Origin: Escherichia phage VTCCBPA_211
Reading direction: 5' to 3' (one strand)
Sequence record: PP989838.1
Length of the DNA: 64,000 nt
In this document: positions 1-8,126 of the stretch, piece after piece
Layout: the number at the start of each line of letters is the position of its first letter
Numbering within the stretch: the stretch's first letter is position 1
The notes under the pieces: model-generated
Told to the model about the DNA's origin: nothing
The model's database searches: none
What the model saw: only the letters and a program-made list of their open reading frames with translations
Translations under genes and position numbers: made by a program

Positions 1-239
1 GCGCTCGCCGCGTGTTTCTCAAAAAGGGGGAGTCCTCATTTAAAAAAAGGGTTATTGGCAATGCCTTTACCTTCCCTTTCAACGTTCCACCTTTCCCCGT
101 GCCTACTCCCCGTAATTATTCCCCCGTGTATACTACCCAATACATTACCTACCCGTTTATTTAGTTCCCCTTTACTGAGTGAGAGAAAGGCCAGCACTGT
201 ACAGGCCAACTGATTAGTCTGCTAATAATGCCATTAATG

Positions 240-500
240 ATGGTTGACAGCTACAGAGTAGCGTCGTATTCCCCCATAGTTACGTTGATAATAGTTTCAA
301 TAGTAATGATTATGAGTGCAATAATGATATATGTATTAATTAAGTGTATGATTGTATTTCTTTTAATTATTCTTTTAAGAATGATTGTTTTTATTTCTTT
401 TAATCTTTTCCTTTTTCAGCGTGCCTTTGTGAGCGTAGCGAACGTCTTTGATGTTTGAGTTAACGATTGATAGCTACGAAGTAGCGTTATACTAATTATT
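240..500. promoter_or_regulatory. AT-rich segment (approx 280-420) flanked by AGTAGCG-containing repeats; candidate origin or regulatory region
   Basis: Read directly: agctacagagtagcgtcgtat (approx 247-267), gagcgtagcgaacg (approx 436-449), agctacgaagtagcgttatac (approx 473-493) flank a very AT-rich stretch with no convincing ORF. Confidence 0.25.
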
Positions 501-649
501 TAAGTGGTATATTATTACCGCACTATCTGGCTATGTTCCCCCGTGGTCTGTTCTGCGGTTGTATGCCCCGTCCTATATAGTAGAAATAGTTTACCCGTGG
601 TCGCTTGTCTTCCTTGTTAAGTAATAGTAAATTGAAGCCTATCAATTGA

Positions 650-841
650 GTGATTGGAGTGATAGAAATGATTATTCTAGTAATGATGGCAATGGCTGTA
701 GTGTTTCCTTTACTTGTTCTGATCGTTTGTGAAGTAGTGGAATTGTTCACTGATAGCAAGTTAAGCCCAAGAAACAAACCTAGTAAGTTTGATGGCGCTA
801 CTTTTAGTAGAAAGAAAGTTAGAAAGATGGTTGCAATGTAA
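650..841 (+). CDS. small hydrophobic membrane protein (probable start ATG 668)
   Basis: ORF with one predicted TM helix (MIILVMMAMAVVFPLLVLIV); first + strand ORF of the early block. Confidence 0.3.
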   Translation: MIGVIEMIILVMMAMAVVFPLLVLIVCEVVELFTDSKLSPRNKPSKFDGATFSRKKVRKMVAM

Positions 842-894
842 GAAAGCGTGTCCTATTATATCCCTATCTGATACATATCAAAGAGGCTTCACAA

Positions 895-1386
895 ATGACT
901 AAACCAATGCAGATGATTAATCTGGCAAGTTATGCGCTAGTCGCCGCGATCGGTGTTAGCGCGCTGGTAACATCTCTTTCTGATAAGGCTATTGCTGGCC
1001 CTATTTCTGCAAATGATGCCGCTAGTGTTTTCGCTAGTTCCATCAATAAAGGTTGGATGATTTGCAATGGTGCGGATAGTGATGGAAGTGCCATTGTGTT
1101 AAAAGTGAAATTTAGCAACGTTACTAATGAGGGCGTTCTCTTTCAGTCTAAGACGTTGGACAATCAGCCGAACAATGATCTGGTACTCAAGCGCACTGAT
1201 AACGATGCGGATATGGTGACGTATGGCACTGTAAAACGTTATAAAGACGTTAAAGCTGTAACCAATCTAGTGAGTTATGGCCCGGTTAATCAGTCGATGA
1301 TTGCCACCACGGTTTACAATAACGCTGATAATGCTGTTTATACTGTTCACATTAATCTAGCCAACTGCATCAAGGCCAGTAAGTAA
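895..1386 (+). CDS. early secreted/periplasmic protein with N-terminal signal peptide, unknown function
   Basis: SD aaagagg before ATG; hydrophobic N-terminus ASYALVAAIGVSALV. Confidence 0.55.
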   Translation: MTKPMQMINLASYALVAAIGVSALVTSLSDKAIAGPISANDAASVFASSINKGWMICNGADSDGSAIVLKVKFSNVTNEGVLFQSKTLDNQPNNDLVLKRTDNDADMVTYGTVKRYKDVKAVTNLVSYGPVNQSMIATTVYNNADNAVYTVHINLANCIKASK

Positions 1387-1413
1387 ATAACCAATTTTCA
1401 GGAGTAACAAAAA

Positions 1414-1665
1414 ATGAGTAACGAAGCGATTAAATTATCCAGCGGTGTTTCTTGTTTTGTGTGTGATACTTTTATCTCGTTCGGCTTGGAAGAAGGTTGC
1501 GTTATAATCCCTACCGTTGCCTTTTGTTCCATGAGTTTTAGCGAGGCTAAAAGATGGCTCCAATTGGTGCGCATTGATATAAATCGCGATGACTTCCGTT
1601 CAATTTACAATGACGGTGGTTTGTCGCTTGCTGGTCTTCTGGATTGTGATTTGCCAAAATGGTGA
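1414..1665 (+). CDS. hypothetical early protein
   Basis: ORF with SD caggag upstream; Cys-rich. Confidence 0.5.
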   Translation: MSNEAIKLSSGVSCFVCDTFISFGLEEGCVIIPTVAFCSMSFSEAKRWLQLVRIDINRDDFRSIYNDGGLSLAGLLDCDLPKW

Positions 1666-1871
1666 TAAAAATGATTCATGATTATCTTTGGCGTTGCTTG
1701 TTCGTTGTTACAGTGGCGTTGTTCGTCGCTGATATGCTTTATTCTTACATCCTTTGAGGTCCGGTTGTGTTGTTTCTGTTTTTGTTTGCCATTGGCTTCA
1801 TTTCTTTAAATTATTTACTGATTGTTGCCGCTCTCGATGTTATTAATCTCACCATTAAAGGTTGATTGGCT

Positions 1872-1967
1872 ATGTGGTTTATTAGATTCGTCGTTAAAAC
1901 GGTTGTAGGCTTCTTTCTGGTCATTCTTCTGTTAGGTGTCCTTCTATCGGCTATGGGTAATGCTTAA
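1872..1967 (+). CDS. small hydrophobic peptide (31 aa), speculative
   Basis: ATG 1872, TAA 1965-1967; translation MWFIRFVVKTVVGFFLVILLLGVLLSAMGNA is one TM helix. Confidence 0.2.
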   Translation: MWFIRFVVKTVVGFFLVILLLGVLLSAMGNA

Positions 1968-2359
1968 ATCCATAGGCTTAATCTTTCTCCTGTATTGTGC
2001 CGTGGTCATGCCTATGGTCATAATCTATCTGATGCTCTAATCCTTCCTATAAGCGCCGCTATGGCGCTTTTCTGTTTTCTAAGGTGATTGTATTCCTTAC
2101 TCCCTTTTAGTTCGCTGTAGTGCGTTTTAGGCCGTTAAATATCGATTTACAAGCCGTTTCCTATGATGTACCGCGTGCGTGCGCTCTTTTACTCTCCCAC
2201 TATGAAAAAAGTTTAAAATATTTTGCTTTACCCTATTGCATCCCTCACTGATTAATGTATACTTCATTTCATCGGGTACGATGTAAAACATACAAGGCAA
2301 GAAATTGCCCCGCTCTTTAAAAATCAGGCTAGAAAGTGAAAATATTCTTAAAAAGAGTA

Positions 2360-2388
2360 TTGACACCAGAAAAAGCCTGATACATAAT
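2360..2388 (+). promoter_or_regulatory. sigma70-type early promoter P1
   Basis: TTGACA (2360-2365), 17-nt spacer, CATAAT (2383-2388); A-rich UP-like tract upstream. Confidence 0.6.
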
Positions 2389-2509
2389 TAGCACACAGTC
2401 AGCGATGACTTGAAAAATCCCGCTCTTTAAAAACTTATCATCTTGCCCTTTCGCACAGAATCACGCGAGAAAGAGGGATAGAAAAGAAAAGAAGATGATA
2501 AAAAAGAGA

Positions 2510-2538
2510 TTGCAAACGTGGTTAAAGTAGTTCATACT
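2510..2538 (+). promoter_or_regulatory. sigma70-type early promoter P2
   Basis: TTGCAA (2510-2515), 17-nt spacer, CATACT (2533-2538); upstream aaaaagaga tract. Confidence 0.5.
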
Positions 2539-2814
2539 AACCACAAGTTAGCAAAACATCGCTAACTAGTTCCCAAATCAACGTATCGCGGGAAAGGTGG
2601 CACATAGTGCAGCGAGTAGTTCGGGATTAGGCGCCCCGTTAATGAATAAGTAAGCCTTTAATGATGCAGTGATTAGCAGACACTATAAAAGGCTAAAAAC
2701 GCTCTTTAACAAAATGAATCATGAGTTAAGCCTTATCGCTTAATCTTCAACCCAACAAAGCGGGTTGATATATCCTCCCAATAGAGGGAACGACGAAAAA
2801 GATTAAAAAAGTGG

Positions 2815-2843
2815 TTGACGGCGAAAACATCATGGTCCATAAT
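2815..2843 (+). promoter_or_regulatory. sigma70-type early promoter P3
   Basis: TTGACG (2815-2820), 17-nt spacer, CATAAT (2838-2843); A-rich tract upstream. Confidence 0.6.
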
Positions 2844-3615
2844 GAGCACACTCAAGCAAAACACCGCTTCAGTGAAAAGCGAAACAACGGCTTACAGTTG
2901 CGTAGTGTGAGAAAGCACACTGACAGATTTACCGCTCTTTAATAATTTAAACATTCTCCTATATCGGTTGCATATGCTGGAAGATAATAACCATCGGAAA
3001 GCATACCAGATAAAACGGTGTAAGGCCCCTAAACTATCAGGGTAAACAGTCTTACAATCCCTTAACTGGAAACGTCACCACTGTTAAACGGATTCATTGA
3101 GTACACGCAACGGCTTAAACTAATCGCCCACGGTTAAAGGGTAGCGGCGGCCATCGCTAACAAGGTGCTACAATGAAAGAAGTTTATCAGGGTAGGCAAG
3201 TCCGACAAATTAACGCCCAATTGAGGGCGGCGGGGGATGGTTAAAAAGTGGCAAATTGCTATTTAACAATAAGGTTTAATGCGAACGTTTACGATGTGAA
3301 CGGCTTGAGATTCGTCTTATGACGGAAGTACATAGTCGGGTTATGTAGTAAACCCGCCGAAAGATATAAAACGCCGGAATATTAGGCGGTCAATGATCTC
3401 TTTCCGCAATAACCTCCCGTAGTGGGCGATGGTTAGCGGTTAGGAGTTGGCACAAAGGATAAGCGGGAGCGAAAACAAAGTAGACGATATTGCCGACGGT
3501 TACAGCAATGTAATTAAATAGAGTCGGACGCATAGCCTTATTGTGATGATTGATCATCGCTATCAGGTCGGCTTCGTTTATAGCGACTAATTAAAGATAC
3601 CAGATGAAACATCAC

Positions 3616-3664
3616 GGATAAGGGGGCGGCAAGGTTAACTCCTGATAAGACCGCCCCGCTTATC
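3616..3664. repeat. imperfect inverted repeat (about 13 bp arms, 21-nt spacer)
   Basis: ggataagggggcgg ... ccgccccgcttatc read directly. Confidence 0.35.
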
Positions 3665-3765
3665 AATAATTACTTAACAATGAGTGGTTATCGATAAGTC
3701 AACAGTGACTTAAAAAGCTCATAGAGAGCGGGGCATAGTGCCCTTACAATTGAAAGGTGAATATC

Positions 3766-4665
3766 ATGGCTAAAATCTTTACTCTGGTTAACGAATCTGG
3801 TTTTAATGCTCTGGCTAACAATATCCGTAGCAATAATGCAGCGATCAAACAGGATGTTTCTAATTTTCTGTTAGGGCACTTACAGCACTTCCGTAGCAAC
3901 GGTAAAAAGTTAGACGTATTGCAGTCGGCGGTTGATTTTCTGTTAACCGAACGTTTCCGCGATATGGATGTTATTGCTACCGCAATCACTTTCTTAACTC
4001 CTATCAAGTTTAACACTGATGCGGCGAATGGTCGTAAGAAGTGGATTAATCTGGAAGGTGAAGCGAAAGCGAAAGAAGATGCGAAAGAAGCGCAAATTAA
4101 AACCAAAATGGAGCAAAACCGCGCTCGCTGGTCAAACGCTTTCGAAAACTTCGCGTTAGGTCGTGAAATTGAAGTCGATAACCCTAACTTCTTCAAAGGT
4201 TGCAATGACAACGTAGCGGCACACCTGCAAATTCCGGCAAAGAATAAAGAAGACTTTAACCAAGATATTTACGCTTTGGTTGAACGCTTGAATGCAATCC
4301 GTATTGAAGCCAAATTACTGGCTGATGAGCGCAACGGCGCAACCAGTGATAATACTATCGCCTTAAGTGAAGAAGTGGGCAAGGTTAAAAAGTCCTTTGA
4401 TTCACTCATCAAGAAAGTCACGGCATCGACGGTAGCGATCTCAGATGATTATCTGATGAACGCATCAAGCAAGGAGCTGGAATCACTCGATTCATACGCT
4501 GATGAAATGGAAAAGACTGTTGCAGCTATGCAGGAGAAGTTAGAAAGTCTGCGCGGTCGTATCTCTTCAACGGTTGCTACCCGTACCGAACAAGCTGCGA
4601 AAGAAGAAGAGGAAGAAGTATTGCGTAAAGCTGCTGAAATTATGGCGGCACGTCAGGCGGCATAA
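3766..4665 (+). CDS. early protein, unknown function (acidic/coiled C-terminal half)
   Basis: ATG 3766 preceded by SD gaaaggtga; 299 aa ORF followed by intrinsic terminator. Confidence 0.7.
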   Translation: MAKIFTLVNESGFNALANNIRSNNAAIKQDVSNFLLGHLQHFRSNGKKLDVLQSAVDFLLTERFRDMDVIATAITFLTPIKFNTDAANGRKKWINLEGEAKAKEDAKEAQIKTKMEQNRARWSNAFENFALGREIEVDNPNFFKGCNDNVAAHLQIPAKNKEDFNQDIYALVERLNAIRIEAKLLADERNGATSDNTIALSEEVGKVKKSFDSLIKKVTASTVAISDDYLMNASSKELESLDSYADEMEKTVAAMQEKLESLRGRISSTVATRTEQAAKEEEEEVLRKAAEIMAARQAA

Positions 4666-4688
4666 GTAAGACAATCTAAATAAACATA

Positions 4689-4720
4689 AGGCGCTATCTT
4701 AACGGGTAGCGCCTTTTCTT
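4689..4720 (+). terminator. rho-independent terminator
   Basis: ggcgcta...tagcgcc hairpin followed by ttttcttt. Confidence 0.6.
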
Positions 4721-4766
4721 TATCAGTGCATTGATTCAGTGCATTAATCAAAGAATCTAATCAAAG

Positions 4767-4994
4767 GTGACGATCATGTTAATTACACATACCACGATTT
4801 ATCGGAATCTTGTCAACGGTCAACATTACCGCCTATCTAAAAAGTATGGCGTTGAATGTAAATGCGTTATTACCGGTGAATGGTATCCGTCACCAATGAA
4901 GATTGAAACGTTGGAACGTGAAGCGATCAGCTATATTATCACGCAAGAAACAACGTTAGGCCGTATCTTAAGAAAGCTGGGATTGAGAAAATGA
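4767..4994 (+). CDS. hypothetical small protein
   Basis: ORF; stop overlaps next start (ATGA) indicating translational coupling. Confidence 0.55.
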   Translation: MTIMLITHTTIYRNLVNGQHYRLSKKYGVECKCVITGEWYPSPMKIETLEREAISYIITQETTLGRILRKLGLRK

Positions 4995-5215
4995 TATTCA
5001 GTAATAATTTTGGCAAGTGTCCTATTTGTGAGAAGCATCGCAGCACGGGAAACCATCGCAAGTGTAGTAAGATATTACAGCGCCAACGTGATAACAACCA
5101 TTGGGATACTGTGCACACTAACCAGCGTAAAGAAGAAGTTAGGAAAATGGCTGTTAAAGCGTCGTTTGCTCAATCAACCCGTATCGAACATATTCAAAGG
5201 TATCAAGCATTATGA
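4991..5215 (+). CDS. hypothetical small protein with CxxC motif
   Basis: ATGA overlaps at both ends; GKCPICEKH. Confidence 0.5.
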   Translation: MIFSNNFGKCPICEKHRSTGNHRKCSKILQRQRDNNHWDTVHTNQRKEEVRKMAVKASFAQSTRIEHIQRYQAL

Positions 5216-5421
5216 TCACTAATATTTCAGAGTTTAAGAAAGCGCCATCTCGTTTGTTAGGTCGTCGTGTTATATATCTTTACAGCAATAAAGGTAAATG
5301 TACAACCGGACAAATTACAACGGTGAGTAGTACCAACAAAACATTACTAAAATTATGCGTAACTATGGATGATGGTACAATCCTGCTACGTAGTTGGAAG
5401 TCATTTAGTTTACTCGATTAA
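5212..5421 (+). CDS. hypothetical small protein
   Basis: ATGA overlap with upstream gene. Confidence 0.5.
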   Translation: MITNISEFKKAPSRLLGRRVIYLYSNKGKCTTGQITTVSSTNKTLLKLCVTMDDGTILLRSWKSFSLLD

Positions 5422-5490
5422 GTTATTTGTTCAAGCCTATCGCCTTGGTGGGCTTGCCCGATATAACTTATCACTGAAAGGAGTGAGATT

Positions 5491-5934
5491 ATGGCTAAAT
5501 CTAAAATCAGTATGAAGGGCGGGCGTTGTTTTTCTATCTCTGAACTGGAGAAAGAGAAGCCGAAGGCAACCAATTACATTAGTAAGCGCAGTTTAAAACG
5601 TCGTGCTGCAAAGGCTGAAGCTGAATCCTATATCCCTTCTAGTGTGGCAAAACGTGTAGGTCATCGCGTCCATCGTGCTGATGCGTTGTTGTTAGCTGAT
5701 CATAAACGTTCTTTGTTAAAGAGCGGGGGAGCTAAAACAGAAGAAGAGAAGAAATTAGAAATATTCTGTAATGGTCGCACCCGTGGTAAACAGAAGTTTA
5801 AGGGTAGCACGAAAGACCCTCAGGCTTTCCCTAAGACAAGCCAGTGTGCACCTGATGTTTTCTACGCAGACAGTAAACACAAGTGGGGCGTTGAAAAATA
5901 CATTGACCCTATCAAAGAGGCGAGGGTTAAGTAG
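5491..5934 (+). CDS. basic (Lys/Arg-rich) early protein, unknown function
   Basis: SD gaaaggag; 147 aa ORF. Confidence 0.6.
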   Translation: MAKSKISMKGGRCFSISELEKEKPKATNYISKRSLKRRAAKAEAESYIPSSVAKRVGHRVHRADALLLADHKRSLLKSGGAKTEEEKKLEIFCNGRTRGKQKFKGSTKDPQAFPKTSQCAPDVFYADSKHKWGVEKYIDPIKEARVK

Positions 5935-5947
5935 TAGGAATATATCC

Positions 5948-5979
5948 CCTCTTTTAGTACTATGACGCTCTTTCTGTAG
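5948..5979 (+). promoter_or_regulatory. conserved intergenic motif CCTCTTTTAGTACTATGACGC (copy 1; copy 2 at 11708-11740)
   Basis: Near-identical roughly 30-nt block immediately after stop codons at two loci. Confidence 0.35.
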
Positions 5980-6013
5980 CGTCGTGCCCTCTCCCCATTT
6001 GAAGCTTCCGCAT

Positions 6014-6037
6014 AGCCGCCTTTGAGCGGCTTTTTGC
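6014..6037 (+). terminator. putative intrinsic terminator
   Basis: agccgc...gcggct hairpin followed by ttttt. Confidence 0.45.
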
Positions 6038-6098
6038 GTTGCTGTAAGTGCATTTGCGAGTGTATTTATAGCAACGGTCATGTGTTGCTTTCAGGTTT

Positions 6099-6126
6099 GC
6101 CCCGGCTACGGCTGGGGCTTTTTTAT
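6099..6126 (+). terminator. intrinsic terminator
   Basis: gccccggc tacg gctggggc hairpin followed by tttttta. Confidence 0.6.
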
Positions 6127-6173
6127 GCCCGTAAAACAGGAGGTAGCAAGTTCTGATAACAACGGCACAGCTA

Positions 6174-6563
6174 ATGTTGACATTGACTATTTATTATGAG
6201 GCAGGGAATCAGCCAACCGCATGTAAAGCTATGGTTGCGGATACCGTGATAAATAGAATGGCCCAACGAAAACTGACCGCTGAACAGGTGATAAGACAAA
6301 AGAACCAGTTTGAGTGGATTCCGGTACTATTAAAACAGGAGAAACCTTATAAACGTTATGTAAAGCTGATTCGTGATAAAAATCCGATGACTAAGCAAGC
6401 CATTGGAGAAAGCGAGCGACTTGCTAAACGTGCCCTTAAGAAGAATTATGTTCCGCTGTACAGTGGGACTTACTTTCAGAGTAAGAGCGAAGGGGTGCCA
6501 AAATGGTATGCCAATCCCATGTATTGTGGTGATTTAGTGTTCGATAATAGCTCTAGGGAATAA
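6174..6563 (+). CDS. putative SleB-like cell-wall hydrolase domain protein
   Basis: Motifs EAGNQPTACKAMVADTVINRM and QKNQFEW resemble the SleB/Hydrolase_2 family (recollection). Confidence 0.45.
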   Translation: MLTLTIYYEAGNQPTACKAMVADTVINRMAQRKLTAEQVIRQKNQFEWIPVLLKQEKPYKRYVKLIRDKNPMTKQAIGESERLAKRALKKNYVPLYSGTYFQSKSEGVPKWYANPMYCGDLVFDNSSRE

Positions 6564-6762
6564 TCACTAGTGCCAGATTTGACAAACTAAATTCCTTTAT
6601 AAACCAACCACTTAGTAAATTTATTGAAAAAGATGGTAGTATTCTGGGACTATGAGTAATGCTCTGTATATAGACCCTTTGAAAATTTCTTAGAAAATAA
6701 GTTTACTAAATATAACTTACTTAAATAATATTACTTTTAATCTCTGATAAAGGGTAAATAAT

Positions 6763-7059
6763 ATGACTTTAGAAGTATATAAATTCCTTTTTGTAAGCTG
6801 TTTAACTATCAGCGTTATAGGATTTATTATCCTTAGAAACAAAGCAGCAAGCTGGGAGAGAATGTATAAATCCCTAGTCCGAGTGGATGAGATGTATAAT
6901 GAGAAAGTTAAAGTGACTCTTAACGATCTTATTATGCAAGTTGAAGACAGAAACAAACGTCTTCAGAACCTCAATCATGAAGTATTGCGCCTTGCTCGTG
7001 CTAATGAAGACTTGCGAGTGGCTATTGCTAAGCAGCAGGAGATTAACAGTGATAATTGA
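6763..7059 (+). CDS. membrane-anchored coiled-coil protein, unknown function
   Basis: N-terminal TM (FLFVSCLTISVIGFIIL) then helical region. Confidence 0.5.
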   Translation: MTLEVYKFLFVSCLTISVIGFIILRNKAASWERMYKSLVRVDEMYNEKVKVTLNDLIMQVEDRNKRLQNLNHEVLRLARANEDLRVAIAKQQEINSDN

Positions 7060-7060
7060 T

Positions 7061-7285
7061 ATGAACCATCCACCAAAGAAGTTAACTCTTGGGGATCTAG
7101 ATTCAGGTGATGTGTTCCAATTCTTTGTGAACTCTGATGATTTTTATATGGCTTCCTGTAGATTTAACAAATCGGATGGTTGTAGAAATTATATGAACCT
7201 TTCGAACGGTGTGATCTCAGCAGATCGTAATACTGTGGTTGTTAAGAAGATTAACAATGCTCGACTTACAGATAAGGTGGATTAA
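7061..7285 (+). CDS. small-protein paralog family A, member 1
   Basis: ATG 7061 right after upstream stop; motif LTLGDLDSGDVFQF shared with six other ORFs. Confidence 0.55.
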   Translation: MNHPPKKLTLGDLDSGDVFQFFVNSDDFYMASCRFNKSDGCRNYMNLSNGVISADRNTVVVKKINNARLTDKVD

Positions 7286-7287
7286 CA

Positions 7288-7524
7288 GTGAAAGTTAATA
7301 TTAAATCTGATCGTACAATGCTTCGATTAAATAACATGAAGCCGGGCGTTCTGTTTGAGCGTAAAGAGTCCCTTTATATTAGAACTGACACATTGTACGC
7401 AGATAACTATGTGAACTGTGTTGATGTGGTAACTGGAAAGCTAATGCCTATTAAACGAGATGAAGTCTGCCAAGTACGCAGTGATCTCCACATAACAAAC
7501 ATAGAGGCTAAAGATGAAGATTGA
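7288..7524 (+). CDS. small-protein paralog family A, member 2
   Basis: Tandem with 7061 and 7514 genes; similar size and motif layout. Confidence 0.5.
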   Translation: MKVNIKSDRTMLRLNNMKPGVLFERKESLYIRTDTLYADNYVNCVDVVTGKLMPIKRDEVCQVRSDLHITNIEAKDED

Positions 7525-7768
7525 TCTGAACCTTAAAGCTAAAGAATTGCGTGTGGGTGATTTGAAACTTGGTGATGTGTTCCAAGTTAAGGCAACATGT
7601 ATTGATTATTACATGATTGTTCAGCTATACACACCACATGTGTCAGAGACTGATCTTCGGAATGGTTGTGTAGTTCTTAGTTTAAGCACCAATCAAGTAA
7701 TGAAGCTAGATTCAAACTTACCTGTTTCAGTCATCCATGATGTAGTAATTACTAATAAAGAAAAGTAA
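7514..7768 (+). CDS. small-protein paralog family A, member 3
   Basis: LRVGDLKLGDVFQV motif. Confidence 0.55.
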   Translation: MKIDLNLKAKELRVGDLKLGDVFQVKATCIDYYMIVQLYTPHVSETDLRNGCVVLSLSTNQVMKLDSNLPVSVIHDVVITNKEK

Positions 7769-7776
7769 CATCGACT

Positions 7777-7880
7777 TATAGCCCTTGTGTTTATCAGAGG
7801 GCTATGTGAGGGTGTTCCTCATTAACTTATTAATTCAGGCATATGCCACACCGCTAGGGAGAGCTTGCTCGAACATCCGG
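7777..7880 (+). promoter_or_regulatory. conserved intergenic element (hairpin + GTGAG + GCTAGGG...AACATCCG), copy 1
   Basis: atagccct...agggctat hairpin at 7777-7805 then gctagggagagcttgctcgaacatccgg at 7853-7880; near-identical copy at 12041-12150. Confidence 0.4.
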
Positions 7881-8126
7881 TGTTAGACTAAAACCTGTTA
7901 ATTTTCGAAAGACTTTCTGATATGTAGGGGTACATATTGGTTTGGGATTCAGGAGACTTCCTAGGGGTAGGGAGTCTTCACCAGTTGGGATAAGAGATAG
8001 CTCTAGAACCTGAACTCTTAGGCAGAGAAGGTCGGCAATGAGTACGCGGTCAGAATTAGTCTACTGACTAGGGCTATCCCTTATATCAACTGGCAATAAT
8101 GCCTCCACTAACAAAGAGAGATAGAT

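Follow-up and report, generated by a model that had tools for sequence, protein, structure and literature searches.

A large structured RNA behind boxA sequences and tandem predicted promoters at the head of a putative early transcription unit in phiEco32-like phages

A stretch without long open reading frames (ORFs) precedes the gene that starts at position 3766 in Escherichia phage VTCCBPA_211 (PP989838.1), of which 64,000 nucleotides (nts; 'the window') were analysed. It contains a conserved, structured RNA of the plus strand, about 900 nts long (about 2850-3744), which lies behind tandem predicted sigma70 promoters and four copies of a motif that reads as boxA, the antitermination signal of ribosomal RNA (rRNA) operons. 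We consider it probable (roughly 75%) that the region is the head of an early transcription unit, built like a host rRNA operon, in which boxA would render RNA polymerase resistant to Rho over an untranslated, functional RNA. Positions 2200-3800 match 97 phage records at 73-95% identity, all of which are phiEco32-like podophages of the Gordonclarkvirinae (Kuravirus and Suseptimavirus), including phiEco32, SU10, ECBP2, ES17 and the BASEL phages. In the literature searched, which did not cover the primary phiEco32 papers, neither the structured RNA nor the presence of boxA in these phages was described.

A conserved, structured RNA precedes the gene at 3766

The RNA was defined from an alignment (A1) of 27 distinct sequences of relatives, which runs from the start of promoter P3 to the ATG and has a mean column identity of 86%. 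The RNAalifold consensus on A1 has 239 pairs, 77 of them with compensatory changes, and 99.1% of cells are paired. Double changes are seen at 77 pairs (365 cells), compared with 7-12 pairs (11-41 cells) when the partners are shifted by 1-3 columns, and none of 500 shuffles reached any of the five observed structure measures. As G-U cells outnumber A-C cells by 672 to 18, the folded molecule is the plus strand, which would be transcribed from promoters P1-P3. Folded as a single sequence, the window RNA has an energy z-score of -5.74. The consensus structure is organised as follows:

2850-2945, plus strand: leader hairpins and boxA copy 4 (consensus structure)
2946-3245, plus strand: RNA domain 1, with long-range closing helices 2946-2959/3232-3245 and 2964-2967/3202-3205 (covariation)
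3246-3264, plus strand: inter-domain hairpin AAGUGGCA-AAU-UGCUAUUU (consensus structure)
3266-3544, plus strand: RNA domain 2, closed by 3266-3283/3529-3544 (covariation; kept in distant relatives)
3545-3744, plus strand: eight 3′ hairpins, including 3623-3657 with the near-invariant loop CAAGGUUAACUCCUGAUAAGA (consensus structure)

Within domain 2, further long-range helices are nested (3286-3292/3480-3486 and 3353-3358/3462-3467). The RNA is under purifying selection, as it is more conserved than the 4-fold-degenerate sites of the adjacent gene (e.g. 88-91% vs 49.5%). Its unpaired positions are conserved as well as the paired ones and form long near-invariant loops, which points to tertiary or protein contacts.

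The original prediction, made from the letters of this DNA, had suggested that the region may produce non-coding RNAs. Covariation bears out a structured plus-strand RNA, which is one large two-domain molecule with no predicted terminator before 3766 and not the discrete small RNAs that were envisaged. It had also been held that a single long 5′ untranslated region (UTR) for the 3766 gene would speak against the idea. A functional RNA would, however, be compatible with such a UTR, since this leader may well be the structured RNA itself.

The RNA was not recognised as a member of a known family. Rfam 15 scans of positions 1-8000 and, with more permissive settings, of 2280-3790 gave no credible match; the best matches (MicX, outside the region, and fragments of snoRNA and U7) had E values of at least 0.1 and were far below gathering scores. 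The covariance models of GOLLD, ROOL, OLE, RNase P, tmRNA, 6S, introns, riboswitches and phage motifs were not matched, and ARAGORN detected no tRNA or tmRNA. The RNA had no BLAST match in 5,426 E. coli genomes, and an invariant motif from it gave no match in a scan of bacterial genomes.

Several short motifs are over-represented in 2850-3770: GGTTA occurs eight times (1.5 expected), AACGGCTT and TATCAGG three times each, GATAAG four times and ATACCAGAT(A/G)AAAC twice. These may be repeated binding sites or traces of internal duplication.

The stretch does not encode a conserved protein

A hidden protein-coding gene, or a set of small peptides, would be another way to account for the stretch. 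Short ORFs are present, and although most depositors left the stretch unannotated, several deposited genomes carry spurious 'hypothetical protein' calls inside it. The earlier statement that no ORF exceeds about 25 codons before 3766 is roughly right: the plus strand has a 43-codon ORF beginning with GTG (2811-2942), a 31-codon ORF beginning with TTG and others of at most 28 codons, and the minus strand has ORFs of 42-79 codons (up to 55 within the RNA stretch, 79 with the promoter region included). None of these is conserved, and across 27 relatives the longest stop-free stretches shift in frame and strand. Indels are mostly of 1 nt, the variable columns are spread evenly over the three phases (139/141/148) with no 3-base periodicity, and the ATG at 3173 is replaced by GTG or its frame interrupted by stops in relatives. 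Without a conserved frame, periodicity or indels in multiples of three, a protein-coding gene can be rejected, and the chance that coding sequence of any kind explains the stretch is negligible.

The repeated motif corresponds to boxA

The original prediction drew attention to a repeated motif, and this observation holds. CGCTCTTTAA is found exactly at 2311, 2421, 2700 and 2933, on the plus strand in each case. The form GCTCTTTAANAA has five matches in 64 kb where 0.10 are expected, none of 100 shuffles reaches five, and it is the sole repeat family in the region. The copies are:

2311-2323, plus strand: boxA copy 1 (CGCTCTTTAAAAA), found by motif scan and kept in relatives
2421-2433, plus strand: boxA copy 2 (CGCTCTTTAAAAA), found by motif scan
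2700-2712, plus strand: boxA copy 3 (CGCTCTTTAACAA), found by motif scan and the same as the T7 copy (E. coli rrn has TGCTCTTTAACAA)
2933-2945, plus strand: boxA copy 4 (CGCTCTTTAATAA), found by motif scan, with flanks GATTTAC...TTTAAAC that are invariant in close relatives

The functional gamma-proteobacterial boxA consensus is GYTCTTTAANA (PMC5725501). All four plus-strand copies fit this consensus, to which the whole window has five matches against 0.59 expected, and 17 of 17 annotated relatives retain four to five copies. By its sequence the motif is boxA, at which NusB/NusE load in the antitermination of rRNA operons. It is known that boxA (core UGCUCUUUA) is the NusB:NusE site and is essential for rrn antitermination, and that long non-coding RNAs are targets of Rho, against which boxA shields long untranslated transcripts (PMC6614797). 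The suggestion that the motif might be a processing or binding site is thus taken up in its second half, as it equals a consensus that would be bound on RNA by NusB/NusE; the promoter/operator decoy proposed alongside has no direct support. In 5,426 E. coli genomes, the rrn leader was detected at 100% identity immediately before 16S, with a median of seven occurrences per genome. Its order is boxB hairpin, TGCTCTTTAACAATTTATCAG and boxC, and the leader reads TGCTCTTTAACAATTTA.

As claimed, the motif follows each of P1, P2 and P3 on the same strand at 30-160 nts, the distances from the end of the -10 hexamer being 33, 162 and 90 nts respectively. One boxA per promoter, or four to five per phage, is more than antitermination needs, for which one is enough, and this raises the idea that the copies act as a sponge. 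On abundant early transcripts they could titrate NusB/S10 (and SuhB) away from the seven rrn operons and so stop host ribosome synthesis, a decoy akin to the one originally proposed. All copies are of the high-affinity consensus type and not the weak type of lambda, and consensus boxA transcribed from multicopy plasmids is reported to compete for NusB. Nevertheless, by sequence the copies stand in the normal position of an antiterminator, being promoter-proximal and following a hairpin; each heads an untranslated stretch of approximately 75 to 830 nts, for which early loading is sufficient reason; and the phage itself requires the host translation apparatus. We regard titration as a quite improbable role.

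The fifth match to both GCTCTTTAANAA and the boxA consensus (5713-5724, minus strand) lies inside the ORF 5491-5934. Among the relatives checked it is shared only with phage NJ01, and as it is not conserved it is probably a chance occurrence. A further related sequence, GCTATTTAACAA at 3259-3270, is boxA with a C-to-A change at position 4. It is near-invariant in all relatives, distant ones included, and is placed exactly at the junction of domain 1 (with its hairpin) and domain 2, which recalls the boxA of the 16S-23S spacer. It is probably not a working boxA, as a base-paired state is predicted for it and function depends critically on the position that has changed.

Scans of IMG/VR and metagenomes with the context of boxA copy 4 or with the gene product returned only close relatives and two unrelated freshwater contigs (Ga0315903/Ga0315904; L031 at about 4070-4570 on the reverse strand, and L026). 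In these contigs two tRNA-like 3′ ends come first, then a hairpin with a perfect CGCTCTTTAACAATTTAAAC behind it, and finally a core of hammerhead type (CTGATGAGGCC...GGCCGAAAC); they may belong to a further mobile element or phage in which boxA precedes a ribozyme.

Tandem promoters and stem-loops accompany the boxA copies

Four candidate promoters and one variable module were placed in the region:

2236-2263, plus strand: candidate promoter P0, TTGCAT-16-TATACT, 8/12, with an A/T-rich tract upstream; read from the sequence, would serve boxA copy 1
2360-2388, plus strand: promoter P1, TTGACA-17-CATAAT, 11/12, with an A-rich upstream tract; found by promoter scan, conserved in relatives
2510-2538, plus strand: promoter P2, TTGCAA-17-CATACT, 8/12; read from the sequence, below the threshold of the scanner
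2545-2690, plus strand: variable transcribed module of about 150 nts after P2, present or absent among aligned relatives
2815-2843, plus strand: promoter P3, TTGACG-17-CATAAT, 10/12, preceded by the A-rich tract GAAAAAGATTAAAAAAG; conserved best of all the promoters

Three near-consensus sigma70 promoters had been claimed. This description suits P1 and P3, which score higher than any other sigma70-like site in the first 6 kb, and overstates P2. A fourth motif copy had been noted upstream of P1; this copy, at 2311, has P0 as its own candidate promoter, which is kept in relatives as TTGCAT/TTGCAA-16-TATACT/TATATT. Counted together, promoter-like sites are no more frequent in the region than expected by chance (14 vs 14.3), and the case for the promoters therefore rests on the quality of the matches, the A-rich upstream tracts, conservation and the SU10 paper. 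Three sigma70 promoters were reported there in the spacer of SU10, 'like phage phiEco32' (PMC4281155); apart from this statement, the promoters are predictions from sequence.

In relatives without the 2545-2690 module, P2 reads TTGACA-16-TAAGCT. The module is located elsewhere in TH34 and has no Rfam match. P2 and P3 share 74% identity over the -10 and start region (2530-2563 vs 2835-2868). Because the P2 and P3 cassettes are paralogous and the module of about 150 nts comes and goes, the promoter-hairpin-boxA cassettes look as if they have been duplicated and shuffled.

As in the early promoter cluster of T7, tandem and apparently strong host promoters lie near the genome end, read inward and have boxA on the leader. 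Promoters near the leading end could also let host RNA polymerase pull the DNA into the cell, as in T7, with the untranslated stretch simply the first DNA available. The layout of T7, with A1-A3 and boxA near the left end, is similar, and in phiEco32 the promoters lie approximately 3.3 kb from the right end of the linear record. Transcription-driven entry accounts for the promoters but not for a fold kept by compensatory changes; it is compatible with the proposed early unit and does not exclude it. As the explanation of the region we find it improbable.

Stem-loops are found 5′ of nearly every boxA copy, in both the window and relatives, which is the boxB-then-boxA order of rrn. The stem-loops and a further hairpin placed among the promoters and boxA copies are:

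2296-2309, plus strand: stem-loop GGCAA-GAAA-TTGCC, immediately 5′ of boxA copy 1
2397-2410, plus strand: stem-loop AGTCA-GCGA-TGACT, 10 nts 5′ of boxA copy 2
2435-2501, plus strand: long imperfect hairpin between boxA copy 2 and P2, from the minimum-free-energy fold, kept in all relatives
2903-2922, plus strand: boxB-like stem-loop UAGUGUG-AGAAAG-CACACUG, the stem of which covaries (helix 4, three pairs with compensatory changes)

The P1-P3 segment as a whole folds well (z = -4.24). One compensatory change supports the 2435-2501 hairpin (ATCGTCTT/AAGACGAT in L011). The GAGAAAG loop of the 2903-2922 stem-loop is kept with two exceptions, and resembles the boxB loop of rrn, GAGAAAAAG.

Since a stem-loop adjoins every boxA copy, with a loop of the GNRA type (GAAA and GCGA) in two cases, and many early genes have no assigned function, the hairpin-boxA units could instead be nut sites that recruit a phage-encoded, N-like antiterminator, as in lambda, and not host factors alone. 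In lambda nut sites, however, boxA comes first (PMC6614797), whereas here the hairpin precedes boxA as in rrn. The hairpin sequences differ between copies and between phages, which leaves no common loop for a protein to bind, and the units would already operate on the earliest transcripts, at a time when no phage protein exists yet. Furthermore, the boxA copies are of full consensus, and a full-consensus boxA reduces the dependence on N in lambda. Dependence on such a protein is thought very unlikely.

Strong promoters followed by a long structured untranslated RNA could likewise form a replication origin, in which the transcript primes or activates replication as does ColE1 RNA II, or as at the primary origin of T7, which lies behind promoters 1.1A/B. 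The records of relatives examined carry no origin annotation. The composition, skew and repeats are all against this. There is no AT-rich unwinding region (GC 0.40-0.45), no inflection of GC skew at 2.3-3.8 kb (the sole switch, near 44 kb, coincides with a change of gene strand), no iterons, as boxA is the only repeat family, and no DnaA-box array was seen. We place little weight on an origin, which appears highly improbable.

The arrangement is conserved in distant relatives

Homologues of the protein encoded at 3766 were found down to 48% identity on Logan contigs. At nine loci, where the gene is 48-70% identical, at least approximately 0.9-3 kb upstream has no called genes (1.4-3 kb in the seven with enough upstream sequence). 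Eight of the nine have two to three copies of the boxA consensus and one, the 5′-truncated L057, has a single copy; in the four loci checked on both strands all copies are on the plus strand. The last boxA lies 870-936 nts before the ATG, compared with 832 in the window. In L050, three TTGACA promoters each stand 50-75 nts ahead of a boxA.

A profile of the close relatives, searched with nhmmer against four of the distant loci, gave E values of 1e-102 to 1e-22, mainly in domain 2 and the 3′ part; in all four loci the match reached into domain 2. When the structure derived from close relatives was mapped onto the nine distant sequences, 69.3% of it was paired vs 37-43% in shifted controls, with 465 double-changed paired cells vs 56-82. 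Pairing in the long-range closing helices is retained at 76-96%, and most positions show compensatory changes; the helices that close domain 1 are 76% and 92% paired, also with compensatory changes.

These data bear on the extent to which the RNA may act purely in cis. The folded 0.9 kb could be a structured 5′ UTR that stabilises the early polycistronic mRNA against 5′-end-dependent decay, or provides sites for RNase III or RNase E. The first gene follows the RNA without a break or a predicted terminator, the ribosome-binding site is unpaired in the consensus structure, which is consistent with ordinary translation of the downstream gene, and T7 also has an early leader after A1-A3, which is processed. 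A few hairpins would suffice for such a role, however, and here two long-range-closed domains are kept even though the downstream gene is only 48-70% identical. The equal conservation of unpaired and paired positions, and the long near-invariant loops, also go beyond it. A leader acting only in cis is thus an explanation of some weight that we nonetheless consider unlikely. Most likely the RNA is functional itself, interacting with protein or with itself, either as a leader domain or after processing.

Five of the distant contigs (L046, L048, L050, L052 and L055, at about 950-2500 of each locus) also have no called genes in another 1.5 kb ahead of the first boxA, whose equivalent in the window holds several small genes (895-2040). 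In L046, the only one in which ORFs were checked, the longest ORF of this 1.5 kb has 69 codons.

Comparison with known systems

The promoters, boxA-type antitermination, which is textbook knowledge, and the carriage of the same arrangement in the T7 sequence are already known; the RNA is a new family attached to this known kind of unit. In the E. coli rrn leader (rrn promoters P1-P2, boxB-boxA-boxC; antitermination complex NusA/B/E/G-SuhB-S4), as in the phage region, strong sigma70 promoters stand in tandem with A-rich tracts ahead of them, the consensus boxA GCTCTTTAACAA (extended to GCTCTTTAACAATTTA in several relatives) comes after a stem-loop, and a long, highly structured untranslated RNA lies downstream; the phage loop before boxA copy 4 is boxB-like. 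The rrn leader differs in having one boxA per leader, not one per promoter, and a boxC, which the phage lacks. The phage RNA is 0.9 kb, is unrelated to rRNA, has protein-coding genes directly after it, and no flanking RNase III stem has been demonstrated for it.

In T7, the tandem strong host promoters A1-A3 lie near the genome end and an identical CGCTCTTTAACAA is present ahead of gene 0.3, 63 nts after the A3 start site. As T7 carries this sequence after A3, the logic of promoter plus boxA has a direct precedent. Unlike the phiEco32-like phages, T7 has one boxA for three promoters and only 175 nts between the A3 start (750) and gene 0.3 (925), with nothing like a structured RNA of 900 nts. 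The nutL and nutR sites of lambda also place a boxA and an adjacent hairpin on the early transcript and use host Nus factors, as would be the case here. They differ in that the order is reversed, the phage boxA is of full consensus with no common hairpin sequence, and the phage units presumably act before any phage protein is made.

GOLLD, ROOL and OLE are, like the phage RNA, several hundred nts long, multi-domain and of no assigned function, with covariation support and long conserved loops, and GOLLD and ROOL are phage-associated (PMC12286853). The phage RNA has no sequence or covariance-model similarity to these RNAs, and differs from them in belonging to lytic podophages of gamma-proteobacteria, where it is fixed as the 5′ leader of an early operon behind boxA.

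Salmonella phage 7-11 (Grimontviridae) has two strong sigma70 promoters and approximately 1.15 kb without ORFs before its first early gene:

L042:8865-9917 (minus strand) joined to L043:1-222: 7-11 leader, found also in L044 and L045

This leader has a folding z-score of -5.15 and a very conserved 3′ core. The 7-11 authors asked how very long early transcripts escape termination, and suspected an undefined antitermination strategy (PMC8948821). The 7-11 leader has no boxA consensus, and its downstream gene is not detectably homologous to that of the phiEco32-like phages; nhmmer found no homology between the leaders, and the downstream proteins are not similar. A covariance model of 3072-3200 (R1) matched only itself and, weakly, L046 and L047. 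With only three sequences, covariation in the 7-11 group is uninformative, and its leader may be an analogous large leader RNA.

A model of the early transcription unit

We propose that P1-P3, together with the probable fourth promoter P0, would fire in tandem with host sigma70 RNA polymerase, and that each transcript would present a stem-loop and then a consensus boxA within 30-160 nts of its promoter. By analogy with rrn, lambda and T7, NusB/NusE (S10) would bind each boxA on the nascent RNA and, with NusA, NusG and SuhB, convert RNA polymerase to a processive, Rho-resistant form. Such a polymerase would be needed because the next 0.9-1.4 kb is untranslated and otherwise open to Rho, and the resistance would extend across this RNA and on into the early genes. 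The complex may also aid co-transcriptional folding, as it does in rRNA synthesis. The product would be an RNA of two multi-helix domains and 3′ hairpins that continues, with no predicted terminator, into the gene at 3766. It would be made in large amounts at the very start of infection, and may function either while still joined to the early mRNA as its 5′ domain or once processing has released it.

Several points weigh against this model. One boxA per promoter is not explained by antitermination alone, since one copy placed after P3 would be enough for every promoter ahead of it, as is the case in rrn and T7. P2 is a weak match to the consensus (8/12), and no GU-rich, boxC-like element follows any boxA copy in the window; the boxB hairpin and boxC are not required for rrn antitermination. 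The 7-11 group has a similar long structured leader without the boxA consensus, so that leaders of this kind do not all require boxA. In those relatives that are the most distant, the interior of domain 1 is either badly preserved or misaligned. The evidence fits both a trans-acting RNA and a purely cis-acting leader, and no transcriptome study of this phage group was found in the literature searched.

A bolder form of the model is that the RNA at 2946-3744 founds a new class of large, multi-domain phage RNA, made in rRNA-like amounts through a boxA/Nus unit in the first minutes of infection and acting in its own right beyond being an mRNA leader, for example by self-assembly or by serving some protein of host or phage as scaffold or decoy, with 7-11 having an analogous, non-homologous solution. 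We put this forward tentatively, as a possibility that falls somewhat short of an even chance.

Flanking genes and terminators

In relatives the stretch is flanked by a small gene annotated as 'terminase' with a terminator on one side, and by a conserved gene for a protein of 299 amino acids (aa; phi32_124) on the other. The corresponding features of the window are:

2051-2077, plus strand: intrinsic terminator, stem AAGCGCCGCTATGGCGCTT then a T-run, from terminator prediction; closes the upstream small-gene operon
3753-4665, plus strand: gp124-like gene (299 aa; phrog_13018), the first of the unit, with its ribosome-binding site (AAAGGTGA) and its ATG at 3766
4688-4715, plus strand: strong intrinsic terminator after the gp124-like gene, the first predicted plus-strand terminator downstream of the promoters

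No plus-strand terminator was predicted between 2077 and 4688. A terminator is annotated at the place equivalent to 2051-2077 in phages 4E8 and SU7, and the layout with a terminator after the gp124-like gene is the same in the distant relative L050 and in the SU7 annotation. The gp124-like gene adjoins the RNA in all cases, distant relatives included, and its product could be a partner of the RNA. The protein had no informative Pfam or PHROG matches, and its AlphaFold model is poor (predicted local distance difference test score of 63) and mostly helical.

Significance

Bacteria and phages have few large structured RNAs, and with every new class new biology has come to light. The RNA described here has a fixed genomic context and appears to be wired to the rRNA antitermination machinery of the host. 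It belongs to a common and poorly studied group of coliphages, of which the members Bas86-94 of the BASEL collection infect E. coli K-12 (PMC11990801), and is thus directly testable. For the phiEco32-like phages, boxA offers a concrete, testable answer to the question posed by the 7-11 authors of how termination is escaped, and the unit may provide a natural system in which to study Nus-complex-assisted folding of a non-ribosomal RNA. If the bolder form of the model is true, kilobase structured early leaders would be a general, overlooked feature of these prolate-headed (C3 morphotype) podophages.

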